Shown here: in pieces, positions 1 through 32,991 of the stretch
How positions within the stretch are numbered: position 1 is the first letter of the stretch
How the letters are laid out: each line of letters opens with the position of its first letter
Virus record (IMG/VR): IMGVR_UViG_3300033480_000011
Coordinates: 1-32,991 of that record
Reading direction: 5' to 3' (one strand)
Length of the DNA: 32,991 bases
From: a virus
Lineage: Duplodnaviria; Caudoviricetes
Translations under genes and position numbers: made by a program
Notes under the pieces: generated by a model
Databases searched by the model: none
What the model was told of the DNA's origin: nothing
The model's input: the letters and a program-made list of their open reading frames with translations, nothing else

Positions 1-131
1 GCGCCGAGCGAGCAGAGTGTGCGTTTGCGCGCCTGGTTGCGTGACGTGCAGGCTGCGCCAGGCGTCCGCGGCGTGTCGCCGGAGTACGTCTGCGTTGACC
101 CGAGTGCGGCCGGCCTGCGCGTGCAGCTGTA
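1..131. repeat. Terminal overlap (copy of 32861-32991), indicating a circular or circularly permuted assembly
   Basis: 1-131 is identical to 32861-32991 except C127 vs A32987, and the TerL reading frame continues across the junction. Confidence 0.97.
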
Positions 132-405
132 CCGGGATGGCTTGCCGACCACCGCGGCGGACAATGACGTGCTGCCTGGCGTCGGCACGAACATGTCGTT
201 GCTGGCCAATAACAAGCTTTACCTGTCGAAGCGTTGCGTGCAGCTCGCCAAGTACCTACCCGGATACTCGTGGGACGATAAGGCTGCGTTGACCGGCGAA
301 GACAAGCCGGTCAAGGTAAACGATCATGAATGCGACGCGCTTCGGTACGGCGATCACACGACGCGCGAGGTCTGGCACAGCGAGGTATATCCGCTTGGAG
401 CGTGA
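1..405 (+). CDS. terL: Terminase large subunit, C-terminal (nuclease) part; continuation of 31955-32860
   Basis: Frame 1 is open from base 1. VCVDPSAA and KVNDHECDALRY are typical PBSX-type TerL nuclease motifs. The gene directly precedes the portal. Confidence 0.93.
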   Translation, partial: APSEQSVRLRAWLRDVQAAPGVRGVSPEYVCVDPSAAGLRVQLYRDGLPTTAADNDVLPGVGTNMSLLANNKLYLSKRCVQLAKYLPGYSWDDKAALTGEDKPVKVNDHECDALRYGDHTTREVWHSEVYPLGA

Positions 406-408
406 GGC

Positions 409-1956
409 ATGCCGATCGAATATGGCGACATCGAGTGGCCGCCGCGCGCGTGTGTCGAGCCGAATCGTCTGCATCGCGAGTACGAAGCCTGGTACTCGGG
501 CGACGTATCCGCGATCAGTGGCGTCTACGGCGGGGGTGCCGCGCCGCTGCCGACCGCGCACCCTGCCCAGTACCGCGGTGGCGTGTCGGGCGCACTGGCG
601 CGGTTCTGGTGGGGGCGACCGCTCACGCCGAACCAGGCCACGACGCGCTTCCACGTGCCGGCACCGAGCGATGTGTCTAGCTACTCGTCCGACTTGCTTT
701 ACAGCGATCCGCTGACGTACACGCTGCCGGACGACGCGAGCGACGTGGCGAAGGATCGCCTGACGCGGGTGGTCGACGACGGCGCGCTGCACGCGCGGCT
801 GCTCGAACTCGGCGAGACGACGTCGTACGGCGGGGGTGCGTACGTCGTCGCTTACGTTGACCAGGTGGTGGCCGATGTGCCGCTGACGACTGTCTACGCG
901 CAGGACTCGGCGGTACCAGAGTGGCGCAACGGGTATCTGTGGGCCGTAACGTTCTGGCGCAGGCTCGATGGCGGTGACCGGCCGGGCGACGTCTGGCGCC
1001 ATCTTGAGCGTCACGAAGTGCTTCGTGGTACCCCGCCGGTCGGCATGGTGTACCACGCGCTGTACCGCGGTAGCGATTACAAGCTCGGCACTCGCATGTC
1101 GCTCGAAGCTCGACCGGAGACAGCCGGCCTCGCAGCGCGCGTCGGCGAAGACGGCGGGATGGCGACCGGTGCGACCGGGCTCGACGTGGTCTACGTGCCG
1201 AACGTGCGGCCCAATCGAGCGATGCGGGGTTCGCCACTCGGGCGCAGCGATTATCACGATGCGACGTCATCCTTCGATGCGCTGGACGAGACGTGGTCGT
1301 CGTGGATGAGGGACATTCGCCTGGCGAAGGGTAGGCTCGTCGTTCCGCGCGCCTACCTGCAGTCGAACGGTCCAGGCCAGGGCGCCACGTTCGATACCGA
1401 GCAAGAGGTGTTCAGCGCCGTCAATACGCTTGGCGGGCCCGACCGCGGCATGGAGCTGTCGCAGGTTCAGTTCGCGATCCGGGTTGCCGAGCATGAGGCG
1501 ACGTGCGCGGCACACTGGCGCACGATCCTGCGCCACGTCGGGTTGTCGCAGGACGCGTTCGGCGAAGAGGTCGACGGCGGATCGGCGACGGCGAAAGAGA
1601 TCGGACGGCGCGGCGAGCGTACCCGCTCGACCCGCGATCGCAAGATCCTGTATGCGCGACCCGAGGTCTCGAAACTCGCCAGCGTGCTGCAAGAGCTGGA
1701 CGTCGTCCACTACCGCCCGGCCGGCGTGGTTGCGATGCCGGTGCGGGTCGAATGGCCGGCCGAAACGCCCGATCTTGAGACGCTGTCGCGCACGTTGCAG
1801 GCGCTCGATGCGGCATCGGCCGCCTCGACGCGCGTCAAGGTCGCGATGCTCCACCCGCGCTGGTCCGAGGTCGAGGTCGACGAAGAGGTCGCGCGCATCG
1901 ATGCGCAGGGCGCGATGCCGAGCCTCCCCGATCCGGACACGTTCACGGGTAGTTGA
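409..1956 (+). CDS. Portal protein
   Basis: 515 aa directly after TerL. YVPN...LGRSDY...DALDETWSSWMRDIRLAKGRLVVP resembles actinophage SPP1-like portals. Confidence 0.9.
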   Translation: MPIEYGDIEWPPRACVEPNRLHREYEAWYSGDVSAISGVYGGGAAPLPTAHPAQYRGGVSGALARFWWGRPLTPNQATTRFHVPAPSDVSSYSSDLLYSDPLTYTLPDDASDVAKDRLTRVVDDGALHARLLELGETTSYGGGAYVVAYVDQVVADVPLTTVYAQDSAVPEWRNGYLWAVTFWRRLDGGDRPGDVWRHLERHEVLRGTPPVGMVYHALYRGSDYKLGTRMSLEARPETAGLAARVGEDGGMATGATGLDVVYVPNVRPNRAMRGSPLGRSDYHDATSSFDALDETWSSWMRDIRLAKGRLVVPRAYLQSNGPGQGATFDTEQEVFSAVNTLGGPDRGMELSQVQFAIRVAEHEATCAAHWRTILRHVGLSQDAFGEEVDGGSATAKEIGRRGERTRSTRDRKILYARPEVSKLASVLQELDVVHYRPAGVVAMPVRVEWPAETPDLETLSRTLQALDAASAASTRVKVAMLHPRWSEVEVDEEVARIDAQGAMPSLPDPDTFTGS

Positions 1957-1981
1957 CGCTTGCCGCTCTCTCATATACTGT
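1953..1981 (+). promoter_or_regulatory. Sigma70/HrdB-type promoter driving the pentamer array and RAMP-like cassette
   Basis: TTGACG (1953-1958), 17-bp spacer, TACTGT (1976-1981). The array starts about 5 nt downstream. Confidence 0.7.
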
Positions 1982-1985
1982 GCGA

Positions 1986-2353
1986 GGCGTGCGTGGCACG
2001 GCGAGGCGGGGCCCGGCACGGCGAGGCGAGGCGAGGCGAGGCGAGGCGTTCAGGGCCTGGCAGGGCTGGGCCTGGCCCGGCGAGGCCGGGCGCGGCGGGG
2101 CGTTCAGGGCATGGCTGGGCAGGGCGAGGCGAGGCGTTCAGGGCGCGGCGTGGCACGGCGCGGCCCGGCTGGGCGAGGCGGGGCGAGGCGTTCACGGCGT
2201 GGCTGGGCTAGGCAGGGCGAGGCGCGGCGCGGCATGGCGTTCAAGGCGCGGCCGGGCGAGGCCTGGCGCGGCATGGCGAGGCGAGGCGTTCAAGGCCTGG
2301 CAGGGCGAGGCGAGGCTGGGTGTGGCGAGGCCGGGCTGGGCGAGGCGTGGCGT
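1986..2353 (+). repeat. Non-coding GGY-NN pentamer array in 7 units separated by GGCGTTCAN linkers; candidate guide-RNA array
   Basis: Strict 5-nt period with constant GGC (one GGT at 2319) and variable NN. Linkers at 2045, 2099, 2133, 2187, 2236 and 2285. Units contain 10, 9, 5, 9, 8, 8 and 11 pentamers. Confidence 0.9.
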
Positions 2354-2381
2354 AATTGTCAAGAACCGAGAGGATGGGCGA

Positions 2382-3020
2382 ATGGCACCGAAAGTGGCGG
2401 AGAAGGTTGCGGCACCTATTGTGCTGCGACAGATCGAGCGTATTGAATTGATTGTCCCGATCATCGGGACGTCCCCCCTCATTCCGCACAAGTGGAGCGA
2501 GAAAGCGCTGCGCATGATGCGTGGCAAGCAGGGTGTCGACGGCAGCGGCGCGGTAAGGGAAAAGCGCGAAGCGAAGATCGCCGAAGACGAAGCCGAGGGA
2601 TGCCAGTATTACCTCGCGGACGGCACGCCCGGTATACCCGCAACGGCGTTCAAGGCTGCGATCGTCGGAGCGTGCAGGCTGTTCGAGGGGCTGACCATGG
2701 TGATGGCCAAGCAGGCTGTCTTCGTTGTTGGCGAGGGTGTCGAGCAGCTTGTCAGGATCGAAGGCGAACGGACCCTTCGGGAGGACACTCCGCGCAACGC
2801 TACGGGTGTGGCGGATCTTCGGTACCGCTACGCGTACTACCCCTGGCGGACATCGTTGCTCATCAGGTATCTGCCGAGCGTGATAGATCCTGGCAGCATC
2901 GGCACTCTGATTGATGCCGCCGGTAATGGGGGAGTCGGTGACTGGCGTCCGAGTGCGCCGAAGTCTGCGACCGGAACATTCGGCTGCTTCGAGGTCGACT
3001 TCGAGGCGCTCAATGGCTGA
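2382..3020 (+). CDS. Stand-alone RAMP / Cas7-like RNA-binding protein (212 aa)
   Basis: ATG at 2382 after GAGAGGATGG. Hallmarks: beta1 IIGTSPLI, PGIPATAFKAAI (cf. Cas7/Csm3 P.IPGSS.KGA.R) and a C-terminal G-rich loop GNGGVGDWRP...GTFGCFEV. Confidence 0.75.
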   Translation: MAPKVAEKVAAPIVLRQIERIELIVPIIGTSPLIPHKWSEKALRMMRGKQGVDGSGAVREKREAKIAEDEAEGCQYYLADGTPGIPATAFKAAIVGACRLFEGLTMVMAKQAVFVVGEGVEQLVRIEGERTLREDTPRNATGVADLRYRYAYYPWRTSLLIRYLPSVIDPGSIGTLIDAAGNGGVGDWRPSAPKSATGTFGCFEVDFEALNG

Positions 3021-3543
3021 CGTGACATTGAGGTCCATCGCTTGGGAACTCGTTATCGGAACCGATTCCGTGGACGTGGAATCTCTCGCGGACAAGCTCG
3101 TCGAGCTATGGCGATACGACGGCCTTGAACGCGAAGCGCTGATGATGGCGGCACGCGAAGCGATTACGGCGGCATGGCGTATGCGACCAATAGCCAGTGC
3201 GCACGGGCACGGGTATCAGCACCGGGAGCGGTCGGCCGAAACGTCCGGTAGCGCTCCGCTGACTCGATCAGAGCCCGTGCGTCGTGAGGTTACTTTCGCC
3301 AAGCTGGTACGCAAGACACGCCTGAGTATTGCTCCGGGGCAGTGGATCCTGCTTGATAACTGCACGTCGAGCAATTTGTTCGAGGTTGCCCAGAGGCGAT
3401 ATGACTTGGCGCACGCGAACAGCGCGCAGGGTGATCGTTTGACCAGGCTGGCAAAGGTGCTTGAGCATCAGGGTCGACAGACCGTCTCCGATCTCCCGGA
3501 CGACGATTTGGTCGAAATTCTCGGCGGTCAGTCGATCGACTAG
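3013..3543 (+). CDS. Hypothetical protein (176 aa) coupled to the RAMP-like gene
   Basis: ATG at 3013 overlaps the end of the RAMP-like gene by 8 nt. Predicted helical protein with no recognised motif. Confidence 0.7.
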   Translation: MADVTLRSIAWELVIGTDSVDVESLADKLVELWRYDGLEREALMMAAREAITAAWRMRPIASAHGHGYQHRERSAETSGSAPLTRSEPVRREVTFAKLVRKTRLSIAPGQWILLDNCTSSNLFEVAQRRYDLAHANSAQGDRLTRLAKVLEHQGRQTVSDLPDDDLVEILGGQSID

Positions 3544-3572
3544 GCGTGAGGCGTTCAGGTCGAGGTATGGCG

Positions 3573-3608
3573 CAGCGAGGCTACGGGATCGATCCCGTAG
3601 CCTCGCTG
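3573..3608. terminator. Perfect 36-bp palindrome closing the cassette; probable terminator or processing hairpin
   Basis: CAGCGAGGCTACGGGATC|GATCCCGTAGCCTCGCTG. Confidence 0.6.
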
Positions 3609-3609
3609 T

Positions 3610-4839
3610 ATGCCCGCCGATCGCATGCTTGCTGAAGACCTCGTGCAGGCTCTCGTGACGATGTACGGCGGGTTGGAAGAGCGTTTGGCACGCGGGATCG
3701 CGGTGCGGCTGGCCAGCGGAATGGATTCGCCGGATTGGGCTGCGCAGAAGCTCGCCTCGCTCGGCGAGCTACGCCGCTGGGCCGAAGCGGCGATTGTGCG
3801 CTTGAACGGACCGATGCAGGTAGAGGTGGCGCAGGCACTCGGCGCGGCATTCCTGCGTGGTGGCGATGAGGCAATCGCCGAGCTGGCCCGTGTGCAGTCG
3901 ACACATCCCGAGTGGCTGCGCTTGGCGCGAGTCTCGGCCCCGAACGACCGGCTGCGCATCGCGATCGCGCGGCGCGGCGCCGCCGTCGCGGATCGGCTGC
4001 GCGACATCGAGCGAGCCCTTCCTGGCGGGCATGCTCTGGCCAGGCTGGCGACTTCGCTTGTGACGCGATTGAGCGGTACGCACTTGCCGATCCTGCGATG
4101 GGTCGAGGATGCCTACCGCTCGGTTGTCGCCGAGATGGCAGCGCCGGGCGTGCTCGCCGGACTCGATACGCGTCGGCAGGCCAGTCAGCGAGCGTGGAAC
4201 CGCCTATTGGATCGCGGCATCACGGGGTTCGTCGACGCTCGCGGTCGCGGGTGGAACCTCGCGAGCTACGTCGAGATGGCGACACGTACCAGCGTGGCGC
4301 AGGCCGCCGTTGAGGGCCATCTTGACCGGCTCGGCGCGGCTGGACTCGACATCGTGATGGTCTCTGACGCACCGCAGGAGTGCGAGCGGTGCCGGCCGTG
4401 GGAGGGCAAGCTCCTGACCCGCGGCGGGTCGGGCGGGCGACGGTCGGTCGTCATCGATGACCCGCTGAGCGCCGATCGGACGGTAACGGTCGAGGTTGCA
4501 GGTTCGGTCGATGAGGCTGTCGCTGCCGGCCTGATGCACCCCAACTGTCGGCACTCGCTCAATGCCTATATCCACGGCGTGACGCGGGTACCCACCAACA
4601 CCCAGGACCCTGAGGGTGACGCTGCGCGTCAACGTCTGCGCGCGCTAGAGCGTCGCGTACGTCGGCTCAAGGTGCGCCAGGCTGGCGCACTCACGCCGAA
4701 GTCGTCCCGCGAGATCGGTACCGAGATTCGCGCGGCGCAGGCTGCGATACGCGAGCACGTCAAGGCGACCGAGTATCTCGGGATCCGTCGCAAGCCGGAG
4801 CGCGAGCGTATCGATCTCGGAAACGTGCGTACGTCGTAG
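3610..4839 (+). CDS. Phage minor capsid protein
   Basis: 409 aa with WNLASYVEMATRT, CERCRPWEGK and GLMHPNCRH motifs, located in the head module. Confidence 0.88.
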   Translation: MPADRMLAEDLVQALVTMYGGLEERLARGIAVRLASGMDSPDWAAQKLASLGELRRWAEAAIVRLNGPMQVEVAQALGAAFLRGGDEAIAELARVQSTHPEWLRLARVSAPNDRLRIAIARRGAAVADRLRDIERALPGGHALARLATSLVTRLSGTHLPILRWVEDAYRSVVAEMAAPGVLAGLDTRRQASQRAWNRLLDRGITGFVDARGRGWNLASYVEMATRTSVAQAAVEGHLDRLGAAGLDIVMVSDAPQECERCRPWEGKLLTRGGSGGRRSVVIDDPLSADRTVTVEVAGSVDEAVAAGLMHPNCRHSLNAYIHGVTRVPTNTQDPEGDAARQRLRALERRVRRLKVRQAGALTPKSSREIGTEIRAAQAAIREHVKATEYLGIRRKPERERIDLGNVRTS

Positions 4840-4842
4840 ACG

Positions 4843-4856
4843 TGGGAGCGCTCCCA
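4843..4856. promoter_or_regulatory. CebR/CelR-box-like palindrome, copy 1
   Basis: TGGGAGCGCTCCCA is an exact match to the actinomycete cellobiose-repressor operator. It lies within an 18-bp palindrome at 4841-4858. Confidence 0.65.
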
Positions 4857-4886
4857 CGCTTGTGACTCTCCTATGTGACACAGTTC

Positions 4887-4928
4887 ACTATACCGTGGTT
4901 GACAAACATGTCAATCGCGGTATAGACT
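4887..4928. promoter_or_regulatory. Promoter inside an imperfect palindrome; rightward, possibly also leftward
   Basis: TTGACA (4899), 18-bp spacer, TAGACT (4923) on +. A mirrored TTGACA-16 bp-TATAGT occurs on -. Confidence 0.65.
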
Positions 4929-4954
4929 ATAGGCATAAGCAAGAGAGCAGGGAA

Positions 4955-5188
4955 ATGGGGAAGATGGGAAAGATGATCACCGTTGACAAGCGAATCGCCA
5001 GGGCAGAGAAGCTCGACGACCAGATCGAGCAGATGATTGACAAGATCGCCGGAGCCAACAACTCGATGATCGACAGCCTAAACGAATTCGCCCGGTTGGT
5101 CCGCGAGGCGACGATCATCAGCGCCCTGTGCGAGCTCCAGGACGCCGACGAGGATGAGGCAGCCGAGATCATCAACGTGAACATGTGA
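4955..5188 (+). CDS. Small acidic helical hypothetical protein
   Basis: ORF downstream of the promoter, with a purine-rich leader. The start is one of ATG 4955, 4964 or 4973. Confidence 0.65.
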   Translation: MGKMGKMITVDKRIARAEKLDDQIEQMIDKIAGANNSMIDSLNEFARLVREATIISALCELQDADEDEAAEIINVNM

Positions 5189-5202
5189 AGGAGGGGATCA
5201 CC

Positions 5203-5442
5203 ATGGCAGACGTTGCTGAGCGCTACGTTGCTGCGGCTGCCCTCCTGGGCGAGATTGCCCGCGCCGAGGAGCTGCACGCCGAAGCGTTGTCGATCGCAAT
5301 GCAGCATCGGGTGTGGCGGGACGGAGTGATCCGCTGGGCGATGACGGCCGGCGTGCCGCGGGCACGCATCGCTGAGGCTGCGGGGATCACCCCCGCGATG
5401 CTGTACAGGATCATGGGCCGTGGGAGCGCTCCCACGGCGTAG
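5203..5442 (+). CDS. Small helix-turn-helix DNA-binding protein
   Basis: RBS AAGGAGGGG. C-terminal GVPRARIAEAAGITPAMLYRIM has an HTH pattern. Confidence 0.75.
   Translation: MADVAERYVAAAALLGEIARAEELHAEALSIAMQHRVWRDGVIRWAMTAGVPRARIAEAAGITPAMLYRIMGRGSAPTA
5421..5434. promoter_or_regulatory. CebR/CelR-box-like palindrome, copy 2
   Basis: TGGGAGCGCTCCCA within a 22-bp palindrome at 5417-5438, at the 3' end of the HTH gene. Confidence 0.6.
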
Positions 5443-5446
5443 TCAG

Positions 5447-5490
5447 TAGCAATGCCACCGATCGCAACTCGACGATCGGTGGCATTGCTA
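5447..5490 (+). terminator. Intrinsic terminator-like hairpin
   Basis: 18-bp stem TAGCAATGCCACCGATCG / CGATCGGTGGCATTGCTA with an 8-nt loop, followed by TTCTGTT. Confidence 0.7.
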
Positions 5491-5555
5491 TTCTGTTGAT
5501 GACTCAAGTACTGGCGATCGGTGGTCGCCTGAGTCATACCCCGGGAGGGCTTGAA

Positions 5556-6227
5556 GTGACTCAACCTAATCCGGCCACGCCGGTCGTGACCGATCCTCCG
5601 GCCGATCCGACACCGACGCCGGCTGTGCCTGCGCCGGTCGATCCGGCACCCGCGTTCGACCCGAAAGCCCTGTCGCCTGAGGCGCAGGAGTACATCAGGT
5701 CGCAGATTGCGGCTGCCGACCAGAAAGCGCGCACGACCAGTAAGGCCAACGCGGCGAAGGAAGCGACGGAGGCGCTTACTTCAAAGTTGGCGCAGGCACT
5801 CGGACTGGCTCCTGATCAGTCGCGTGATCCGGAAGCGCTGACGAAGCAACTGACCGAGTCGCAACGCGAGGCACGTATGTTGCGCATCGAGCGTGCAATT
5901 GAGCTTGCTGCGCGCAAGTCGGATGCCGACGAAGAACTTGTGACGGCCGTGCTGCTACGCGGTGGTCGGCTGGCGAAGCTCGACCCGACAGCGGACGACT
6001 TCGGCGCAAGCGTGGCGGAGCTTGTCAAGAGCGCCGTCGAAGCAAATCCGAGACTGCGCGCGACGCCGGCCGTGCCGGCACCCGCGGCGGTTGGTGGGGC
6101 AACGTCAACGGCCATGGCTGGGCCTGGCGCAGCGGCTGCGCAGGGTGGCGGTACCGGTGGTTCCGAGCCCGACTTCGGCAACATGTCGGTGGACGATCTA
6201 CGCAAATACATCAAGGACAATCGATAG
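5556..6227 (+). CDS. Capsid scaffolding protein
   Basis: GTG after GGGAGGG. Pro/Ala-rich N-terminus and helical core, immediately before the major capsid gene. Confidence 0.8.
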   Translation: MTQPNPATPVVTDPPADPTPTPAVPAPVDPAPAFDPKALSPEAQEYIRSQIAAADQKARTTSKANAAKEATEALTSKLAQALGLAPDQSRDPEALTKQLTESQREARMLRIERAIELAARKSDADEELVTAVLLRGGRLAKLDPTADDFGASVAELVKSAVEANPRLRATPAVPAPAAVGGATSTAMAGPGAAAAQGGGTGGSEPDFGNMSVDDLRKYIKDNR

Positions 6228-6267
6228 CGCGCCGGGCGCGCAGGCTCGGCGAGGAAGATAGGAAGCA

Positions 6268-7188
6268 ATGGCACTTTTGACCTTGACCACAATGGCGCGG
6301 CTGGCACTCGCCACGCTGTTTGAGAACAGCATCATGCTGTCTCTGGTCAACCGCGATTGGGAGAACGAGTTCTCCCCTGGCAAGGGTGACAAGATTCGCG
6401 TCCGCAAGCCGAGTCTGTACCAGGCGCACGAATTCACCGGCGCGATCATCGAGCAGACCCCTGCCGAGTCGTACGTCGACATTGAGCTGAGCCATCACAT
6501 CGACACGTCGATCGCGCTTACGTCGCGGGACATGGCGCTGAATCTGTCCGATTTCAATACCCAGATCATGACTCCCGCATTCGAGGCGATCGCGAAGAAG
6601 GTCGACACCGACCTCCTGGCGCTTCGCGCTGACCTTCTCAAGATTGTCGGCGATGGGGTGTACCGGCCAGCCGGCGTGACCCGTGCGGCGTATACGAAGT
6701 TCGACGCTCGATGCCTGCTCGACGCTGGCGTACGCCTGGCGGACGACAACGTGCCGCTCGGCGACACATACGCGGTGATCGATGCCGCGACCGCGGGCGA
6801 ATGGCTCGGCAGTGACCTGTTCTCGAACAACGCCCAGGCCGCGGGTGCGGACATCGCGACTCAGGCGCTGCTTAACGCGTCGCTCGGCCAGCGCCGGTAC
6901 GGGTTCGCCCCGTACCAGAGCCACAACATCGAGGATGGCCAGGGTGTCGCCTTCCATCGCAGCGCGTTCACCTTGGCAACCAGGCCGCTTGAGCTGCCCG
7001 ACGGGATCCCCGCGGAAGGTAAGGCGATCGAGAACTACAAGGGTGTAGGGATCCGGGTCATCAAGGCGTACGAGGTTCGGTCCAAGAAGACGATCGTCAG
7101 CTTCGACCTGCTCTACGGCGTCAAGACCATGGACGCGGCGCGCGCCGTGCTGATCGGCGAGAGTTCCGAGTCCGGCAGCGGTAGCTAG
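6268..7188 (+). CDS. Major capsid protein (P22 coat-like family)
   Basis: 306 aa with VNRDWENEF..GKGDKIRVRKP, AFHRSAFTLATRPL and SFDLLYGVKT, located after the scaffold gene. Confidence 0.9.
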   Translation: MALLTLTTMARLALATLFENSIMLSLVNRDWENEFSPGKGDKIRVRKPSLYQAHEFTGAIIEQTPAESYVDIELSHHIDTSIALTSRDMALNLSDFNTQIMTPAFEAIAKKVDTDLLALRADLLKIVGDGVYRPAGVTRAAYTKFDARCLLDAGVRLADDNVPLGDTYAVIDAATAGEWLGSDLFSNNAQAAGADIATQALLNASLGQRRYGFAPYQSHNIEDGQGVAFHRSAFTLATRPLELPDGIPAEGKAIENYKGVGIRVIKAYEVRSKKTIVSFDLLYGVKTMDAARAVLIGESSESGSGS

Positions 7189-31971: not shown

Positions 31972-32991
31972 GCCGCTCCGCGGCAAGGGGCGGCTTTCCG
32001 TCCAGCACGCGACGGCGGCCGGCAACCTCTGGGAAGGTGCTGTTAGATCTGCCAAGACGGTCAGCTCGACGCTCAAGTGGATTCAGTTCGTACGCCAGGC
32101 GCCGGACGGCGAACTACTTATGATCGGCAAGACGGAGCGCACCCTGAAGCGTAACGTCATCGATCCGATGATCTCTTATCTCGGCCCGCGTCGCTGTCGG
32201 TACATAGCTGGCGCGGGTGAGGTCAGACTGCTCGGACGACGCATCTACGTTGCGGGTGCTAACAACGAGATAGCGGCGGACAAGATTCAGGGGATGACGC
32301 TCGCTGGTTGGTACGGAGATGAGCTGTCGACGTGGCCGGCCACCGTGTTCAAAATGGCACGTACGCGATTGAGCGTGCCCGGCGCGCAATGGTTCGGGAC
32401 GAGCAATCCGGCGAGTCCGGCACACTGGCTCAAGGCCGAGTGGATCGACCGGGCGAAGTTGCACATCACCCGCGAGGGTACAGTAGAAACGTTCGCGGAC
32501 GGTATCGATCTGCACGTATTTAGCTTTACGCTTGACGACAATCCATGGCTCAGTCCGACGTTCGTGGCCAATCTCAAGCGTGAATATGTCGGGCTGTTTT
32601 TTCGGCGCTATATTCTCGGCGAATGGGTACAGGCTGAGGGTGCGATCTACGACATGTTCGATCCAGCGCGTCACGTCGTCGAGCCGACCCGGGTACCGCC
32701 TATCCGGCGCTGGATCTCGGCCGGCGTCGACGTCGGTACCCGCAACCCGACCTACGCCGTGCTGCTCGGTCTCGGACACGACATCGGTGGCCAGGATGGC
32801 GCCGCGCTGTACGCGGTGGACGAATGGCGCCACGACGGGCGGGCCGAGCGTCACTCGCTTGCGCCGAGCGAGCAGAGTGTGCGTTTGCGCGCCTGGTTGC
32901 GTGACGTGCAGGCTGCGCCAGGCGTCCGCGGCGTGTCGCCGGAGTACGTCTGCGTTGACCCGAGTGCGGCCGGCCTGCGCGTGCAGATGTA
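31955..32991 (+). CDS. terL: Terminase large subunit, PBSX type (continues to 405 across the junction; 436 aa in total)
   Basis: Not in the ORF track because it runs off the end. Reads MPPAIEPL...NLWEGAVRSAKT (Walker A), IQGMTLAGWYGDE (Walker B), GTSNP, FTLDDNP and GVDVGTRNP. Confidence 0.95.
   Translation, partial: MPPAIEPLRGKGRLSVQHATAAGNLWEGAVRSAKTVSSTLKWIQFVRQAPDGELLMIGKTERTLKRNVIDPMISYLGPRRCRYIAGAGEVRLLGRRIYVAGANNEIAADKIQGMTLAGWYGDELSTWPATVFKMARTRLSVPGAQWFGTSNPASPAHWLKAEWIDRAKLHITREGTVETFADGIDLHVFSFTLDDNPWLSPTFVANLKREYVGLFFRRYILGEWVQAEGAIYDMFDPARHVVEPTRVPPIRRWISAGVDVGTRNPTYAVLLGLGHDIGGQDGAALYAVDEWRHDGRAERHSLAPSEQSVRLRAWLRDVQAAPGVRGVSPEYVCVDPSAAGLRVQM
32861..32991. repeat. Terminal overlap (copy of 1-131)
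   Basis: 130 of 131 bases identical to the window start. Confidence 0.97.

Follow-up and report, generated by a model that had tools for sequence, protein, structure and literature searches.

VIPR systems, of which seven types have been described, combine the RAMP protein Vipr, one vap gene and guides of 9-16 YNNGG repeats that read a DNA target with one-base skips; they repress competing phages, and their natural targets are mostly phages and satellites (bioRxiv 10.64898/2026.04.26.720920). In staggered arrays, according to the legend of figure S18 of that report, the guides overlap by one base. For the VIPR of Escherichia phage SUSP1, the structural study describes one protomer per repeat, assigns roles to individual residues and reports poor assembly on RNA targets (10.64898/2026.04.26.720927), while two further reports state that vipr and vap1 are both required against a satellite (2026.10.15.759431) and that 99 VIPR-like clusters were recovered (2026.10.21.760802). 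Stem-loop TIGR-TasA (PMC12045711; 10.64898/2026.09.09.750476) is likewise a nuclease-free RNA-guided repressor, and ParB-like partners occur with both systems (the ParB-like tasParB is operonised with tasA in PMC12045711), whereas the Nop-domain effector and the two-spacer stem-loop guide are its own. The two systems have been described separately and have no common protein fold or guide design. Here we analyze the virus record IMGVR_UViG_3300033480_000011 (Caudoviricetes; 32,991 nucleotides (nt); hereafter the window, meaning this whole stretch), in which an array, a RAMP gene and an accessory gene form one insert between the portal and minor capsid genes. With a probability of roughly 0.8, we consider this cassette to be a VIPR system whose staggered array holds seven guides, whose accessory gene has been swapped in, and which likely uses RNA-guided DNA binding to silence the genes of rival phages or satellites. 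The VIPR core of this finding is already known; what is new is a partner from a family associated with TIGR-TasA.

An earlier, sequence-only reading had described a 368-nt array of constant GGC triplets alternating with variable dinucleotides. The array is real, but its period is not continuous: positions 1992-2350 parse as 67 YNNGG units (Y is C in 66 and T in one) that are interrupted six times by a 4-nt CGTT linker, seen as GGC-GTTCAR and shifting the register by one base each time, which makes seven guides and not one. These vrRNA tracts, all on the plus strand, comprise 11 units in tract 1 (1992-2046), 10 in tract 2 (2051-2100), 6 in tract 3 (2105-2134), 10 in tract 4 (2139-2188), 9 in tract 5 (2193-2237), 9 in tract 6 (2242-2286) and 12 in tract 7 (2291-2350), which ends in CGTA; six of the seven thus hold 9-12 units, and tract 3 lies below the published 9-16. 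As the NN right after the linker begins with A in six of six cases, that NN may be partly linker. GGY pairs at lag 5 numbered 60 in the array; 1000 dinucleotide shuffles averaged 4.4 +/- 2.0 and never exceeded 11, and none of 320 other 368-nt segments had more than 6. No 23-mer was present three times in the window, no Rfam match was obtained in 1850-5700, and no cas family was detected among the 28 window open reading frames (ORFs), a subset of all its ORFs, that were scanned against PHROGs, in line with the earlier statement that cas genes and CRISPR repeats are absent.

A sister strain (L080) that is 95% identical over 2.98 kb allowed the array to be compared between closely related phages. 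Although its vipr gene is identical to that of the window at 626 of 639 nt, the last nine array units differ at 14 of 18 NN positions, at none of the 18 GG positions and at one of the nine Y positions. This NN-restricted variation is what one expects of a scaffold in which certain positions can be programmed. A contig from run X3 repeats the L080 array changes and was not counted as a separate case. With a near-identical vipr and a different NN series, the sister pair presents a case for asking how guides change without Cas1.

The vipr gene (2382-3020, plus strand) encodes a 212-aa stand-alone RAMP (phrog_4652) and overlaps the coupled gene for a 176-aa accessory protein (3013-3543, plus strand) by 8 nt. 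Both ORFs were confirmed, and the proposed RAMP/Cas7 hallmarks of the 212-aa protein, GTSPL, PGIPATAFKAAI and a terminal G-rich loop, were all found. Its homologues numbered 872 among 1330 candidates. An AlphaFold model of Vipr, built from a 98-row alignment on the sister allele P0001 (the first alignment row, differing at residue 5 only), reached a pLDDT of 88.6. With this model, 33 of 33 Foldseek hits among the matches listed were CRISPR effector complexes (best E 4.6e-6), and Csm3/Cmr-type chains ranked first in VIA-align (Z 9.9, root-mean-square deviation 4.2, 148 aligned), as the predicted RAMP fold would have it. Sequence searches of Pfam and of the PDB gave no match for either Vipr or the accessory protein, and the ESM Atlas yielded only leads under 0.9. 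In HHalign, the Vipr profile matched SUSP1 Vipr with a probability of 96 (E 3.6e-9) over the C-terminal 55 columns, SUSP1 agp039 being taken as vipr by position, length and residue numbers. In a sequence alignment of low identity, H17, R39, R138, D177, W178 and R179 of SUSP1 correspond to H36, R59, R149, D187, W188 and R189 of the window protein, K82 aligns with an Arg, and C173 is unmatched. In the SUSP1 record (L028:28474-29061), residue 175 is Val as opposed to T175 in the structure paper, and the other cited residues agree.

Whether homologues also flank GGY-NN arrays had been named beforehand as a check, and the answer was affirmative: among the 27 Vipr homologue loci that were read, six of them from near-identical mycobacteriophages, 25 carried GGY/NN arrays on the vipr strand, while L018 (with little downstream DNA) and L027 showed no array by the GGY/NN test. 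The arrays sit either upstream or downstream of vipr and, by eye, are broken by 4-nt GGCA or 9-nt units. Compared with the published staggered VIPR, the window has the same stand-alone RAMP, single accessory gene, tandem YNNGG tracts, one-base offset and phage-encoded setting, and differs in its accessory (phrog_4604 family) and its linker (CGTT). With the type II VIPR of SUSP1 it shares the D-W-R of the G-loop, the thumb Arg, the beta-1 His and the GGY/NN code, whereas overall identity is low, SUSP1 has separate guides that carry a pseudoknot tail, and SUSP1 Vap1 belongs to phrog_5926. Staggered arrays also occur in Mycobacterium phage Saal and its relatives (Cheoctovirus), whose Vipr is 64% identical to that of the window, and in the Gordonia phages Pipp and ODay (about 40% identical); all of these have GGCA breaks instead of CGTT, and a phrog_15946 partner.

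Taken together, the cassette contains a RAMP with a single RRM, thumb and G-loop that is homologous to Vipr, adjacent YNNGG tracts with fixed GGY and hypervariable NN, and a minimal vipr-accessory locus with no cas gene or CRISPR array in the scans made; its successive guides are offset by one base, as in the staggered form when set beside the figure S18 legend only. On this sequence evidence it is almost certainly a VIPR system, and the VIPR-type systems to which the sequence-only reading had pointed are indeed published, with the fold, the SUSP1 homology, the arrays of homologues and the NN-restricted variation all fitting. Neither the repeat-spacer array nor the further cas genes of class 1 CRISPR-Cas were found in the scans made. 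Likewise, a TasA query detected no Nop-domain protein of TIGR-Tas in window positions 1-6300, and the window array is fully accounted for as YNNGG (the stem-loop unit finder was run on TIGR-linked loci only).

Two further observations were made on Vipr loci. In phage Saal (L001:2598-4049) and in L006-L010, a staggered-array VIPR follows an antirepressor gene, and the guides differ between near-identical phages; these mycobacteriophage loci offer a ready bench model. Phage LittleE carries a divergent Vipr-like gene (gp34-gp33, L091:2875-4400; profile E 1e-5) that sits between tail genes on the opposite strand; behind it come a partner gene and short GGY/NN tracts with longer spacers between them.

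The accessory gene belongs to a different family from those usually found beside vipr. Partners at the 27 Vipr loci were of the phrog_15946 type in 20 cases and ParB-like in five (L005, L013, L014, L017 and L019), and none was of phrog_4604; the PHROGs check of these partners covered two phrog_15946-type and three ParB-like members, the latter being phrog_1033 in three of three, and the ParB-like family had no Pfam or PDB match. The window protein had only three close matches including itself, which a profile search extended to 115, and phrog_4604 was matched by 106 of 107 aligned family members. Its model (pLDDT 83, pTM 0.58) consists of an N-terminal three-helix part, a flexible linker, a hairpin and a long helix, and fold searches returned no solved match, just unnamed or uncharacterised phage proteins.

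Elsewhere, members of this family precede TasA-like genes and arrays of stem-loop TIGR units. In 11 of the 11 other loci where the profile scored, a TasA-like gene follows the phrog_4604-family gene downstream within about 220-640 nt, with no Vipr. These loci come from phages Bethlehem, Pinto, Spooky, LonelyBoi and prophiFSAT01-1, three viral contigs and three genomes, and include two near-identical pairs; L102, below profile scoring, stands outside the count. The phage loci read represent four of 84 phage matches plus one further record, and in further genomes the accessory profile was found in 0/401 and 1/401. Between the two genes, nine of nine non-redundant loci have 2-8 stem-loop units, each with two CCA-led spacers, as counted without a shuffled control; this is the arrangement described for stem-loop TIGR (PMC12045711; 10.64898/2026.09.09.750476). 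Bethlehem gp71 matches TaTasR (9MTY) with E 7.7e-15 and TasH with E 1.1e-6. Thus, stem-loop TIGR-TasA shares the accessory family of the window, as in the arrangement Bethlehem gp72 - array - gp71, and the helper is all that the window shares with it. No account of a helper family common to VIPR and TIGR-TasA was found in the literature, although the vap1-6 tables (figure 5, data S4) or the TIGR supplements, which lie beyond the portions consulted, may list it; the available TIGR passages name tasParB as a partner of TasA and do not mention the phrog_4604 family (PMC12045711; 10.64898/2026.09.09.750476).

In Bethlehem (gp72-gp71, L092:2001-3505) and in L093-L096, a gene annotated as transposase or DNA-binding is TasA-like and is preceded, near the repressor region, by a stem-loop TIGR array and a phrog_4604 gene. 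Such a locus represents a tractable TIGR-TasA in cultured actinophages, and provides a first functional lead for a family that is unannotated in many cultured mycobacteriophages (Bethlehem gp72 and its kin, beside the annotated transposase).

The history of this partnership was examined in a Vipr tree of 33 sequences, with four duplicate mycobacteriophage loci left out and the root placed on SUSP1 and LittleE. Viprs with a phrog_4604 partner formed one subclade (bootstrap 86, or 98 when one protein of unknown partner is included), sister (95) to a clade with four of the five ParB-partnered Viprs. Because they nest among phrog_15946-partnered Viprs, the phrog_4604 partner is, as judged from this tree, a replacement on the Vipr side. 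Since ParB-like genes are also reported as operonised with tasA, both derived partners of the window's Vipr clade are kinds seen with TasA, and an exchange of accessory genes between VIPR and TIGR-Tas is likely. Contig sizes point indirectly to phrog_4604 partners paired with Vipr in two more lineages: for five of the six members of an 85%-identical Vipr cluster, the longest-contig sizes recur in a 73%-identical accessory cluster, and the longest contigs of a 75% Vipr cluster and a 38% accessory cluster have equal sizes, 1472 and 1681 (several contigs being under 1.7 kb). In addition, the accessory gene is a mosaic between the sister strains: its 5' half (window 3013-3255, L080:781-1023) is identical at 186 of 243 nt (77%) and its 3' half at 287 of 288 nt (99.7%), a divergence that suggests exchange or selection in the N-terminal part.

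A mechanism can be proposed by analogy with the SUSP1 structures. Vipr would coat a single transcript from the upstream promoter, with one subunit on each YNNGG unit, and each 4-nt linker would break the register and mark the cut between guides; both vrRNA transcription and Vipr binding are predictions for this locus. The NN pairs would then recognise two of every three bases of double-stranded DNA, passing over the third, which is usually at the codon wobble position, and the bound filament would block transcription without cutting. The accessory protein, which probably took over from an earlier partner in this Vipr subclade, would enhance repression where the complex is bound, in the way that Vap1 does for SUSP1 VIPR, and would be expected to act on DNA and not by a Vipr-specific contact. 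That VIPR and TIGR-TasA share a functional helper is possible, at somewhat less than even odds. More tentatively, a phage pool of plug-in helpers (the phrog_4604 family and ParB-like proteins) might serve both a RAMP filament and a Nop dimer by sensing opened or protein-blocked DNA, the present locus then being a natural chimera. A helper family beside both systems points to a common downstream step in phage RNA-guided silencing, and compact repressor tools could gain a small booster from such a helper.

It is possible, though we think it improbable, that the locus is a VIPR system in which the 176-aa gene is a passenger of RNA-guided cassettes with a separate job, such as host takeover or exclusion. 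The protein has no fold or domain tied to DNA binding, and its contrasting halves between strains look as they would under conflict with something else. However, the gene overlaps the vipr stop codon and fills the place of the usual partner, it stays with the Vipr subclade down to 38% identity, and its family adjoins an RNA-guided effector in every locus read. We favor a VIPR system with a swapped-in accessory that would strengthen repression.

Several observations weigh against this interpretation. Significant similarity to SUSP1 Vipr is confined to the C-terminal 55 columns, and in the low-identity alignment SUSP1 K33, which is required there for repression, as well as E71, M72, G87 and K88, are unmatched; the window also lacks the structured 3' tail of type II. 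The accessory protein has no known fold, its proposed role being drawn from gene context, and the Vipr-accessory pairing in the two further lineages comes from equal contig sizes and not from read DNA. In the tree of the accessory family, the four proteins linked to Vipr share a single branch (0.85). Under the midpoint root used, this branch falls outside the group that the nine TIGR-linked loci span (83 of 116 leaves), so that transfer may have gone in either direction. Finally, no target was established, as the collection scans gave nothing or matches at chance level.

These target searches comprised seven exact NNx-pattern scans of sequence collections with tracts 1, 2, 4 and 7 and a control guide. 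Tracts 4 and 2 had no match in viral contigs, and tract 7 had none in metagenomes. A single tract 7 match in viral contigs (20/24, in an AT-rich contig) was rejected as chance, as were matches of 22/24 and 21/24 in genomes of Verrucomicrobiales and Rhizobiales, of which about 1.1 were expected. The control guide, taken from the mycobacteriophage loci L006/L007, also had no match, and the blank scans thus say little. As to self-targets, the best one-skip scores of tracts 1-7 were 15/22, 14/20, 10/12, 14/20, 13/18, 14/18 and 18/24, none of which was accepted; the tract 3 score of 10/12 was equalled under skips 0 and 3. When 83 guides were compared with the loci, no clear skip length emerged (mean best score 0.78 for skip 1 and 0.75-0.76 for the others). 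Codon positions 1-2, by contrast, were the best fit for 93 of 121 distinct tracts (53 sense, 40 antisense) versus 64 and 68 in random controls, and for five of the seven window tracts, the tracts not being independent; this codon-frame composition indirectly favors the one-base skip rule.

The genome scan with tract 1 gave a match at 22 of 22 NN bases, in codon frame, in a small ORF rich in Pro and Asp that two sister species of Streptomyces carry (L104/L105:601-629); it is a weak lead and compatible with chance. This match, and the failure of the scans to find a phage target, would suit guides aimed mainly at host chromosomal genes, the cassette being a host-control device and not an anti-phage weapon. 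We regard this as quite unlikely: codon-prefix frequencies predict about three such 10-NN matches per 1e11 codons, and more for an acidic run, and in the published work phages and satellites make up most of the natural targets (10.64898/2026.04.26.720920). It is very improbable that the RAMP acts as a stray Csm3/Cas7 that binds RNA targets or decoys host CRISPR-Cas. Structurally it comes closest to Cas7-group proteins of types III and VII, but the PDB searches turned up no Vipr chain, so that Csm3 is the nearest relative among the matches listed; moreover, the SUSP1 homology and GGY/NN arrays fit a DNA-targeting VIPR, and SUSP1 VIPR assembles badly on RNA targets (10.64898/2026.04.26.720927). 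Lastly, the frame open from 1953 to 3020, which gene callers extend into (P0002, with a 346-aa form on record), would allow the array to be low-complexity coding sequence for the N-terminal part of a longer protein, a notion that can practically be dismissed since homologue arrays lie on either side of vipr, most homologues among the matches listed have 195-225 aa, and changes between strains hit NN and spare GG, which argues against a coding repeat.

The sequence-only reading had assigned the cassette its own -35/-10 promoter: TTGACG (1953-1958) with TACTGT 17 nt further on is visible (1953-1981, plus strand; overlapping the portal stop codon), whereas a consensus scan, whose threshold this candidate does not reach, scored no promoters. 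TANNNT is the actinobacterial -10 element, and a promoter ahead of the array is plausible only. A 5' leader (1983-1991, plus strand) ends in the linker variant CGTG, which serves as an internal linker in L080. After the accessory gene, a degenerate array remnant carrying the array's linker (3544-3572, plus strand; identical in L080) could signal the 3' end or be a defunct guide. The closing palindrome described earlier (3573-3608) is perfect over 36 nt, stands directly before the minor capsid start and occurs in the sister strain too; it has no T-run and the terminator scan made no call there, and it is likely a terminator or a processing hairpin.

The window is a circular phage contig whose start repeats from position 32861, and the stretch is present in wetland metagenome runs, all from one study. 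The 28 scanned ORFs include portal, minor head, major capsid, tail, amidase, primase, helicase and WhiB genes, with no integrase among them. The cultured phages with the closest portal (about 40% identity) infect Streptomyces, Gordonia and Micromonospora; together with the WhiB gene, these hosts of portal relatives suggest some actinobacterium as host. The portal and minor capsid genes had been taken to be usually adjacent, which held for 18 of 43 relatives with both genes (estimated gap of at most 100 nt), the others holding inserts. The cassette was found in none of 50 portal relatives, and in the closest of these (88% portal identity) the same junction holds another insert, of about 229 nt. 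The junction would thus be a variable slot, and the cassette a lateral gain in the window's lineage. A second insert, absent from the 50 portal relatives by tblastn, lies between the minor capsid and scaffold genes (4840-5495); it contains two small ORFs, one of them helix-turn-helix-like, is flanked by two palindrome copies (at about 4841 and 5420), and is closed by a strong hairpin at about 5445-5493.

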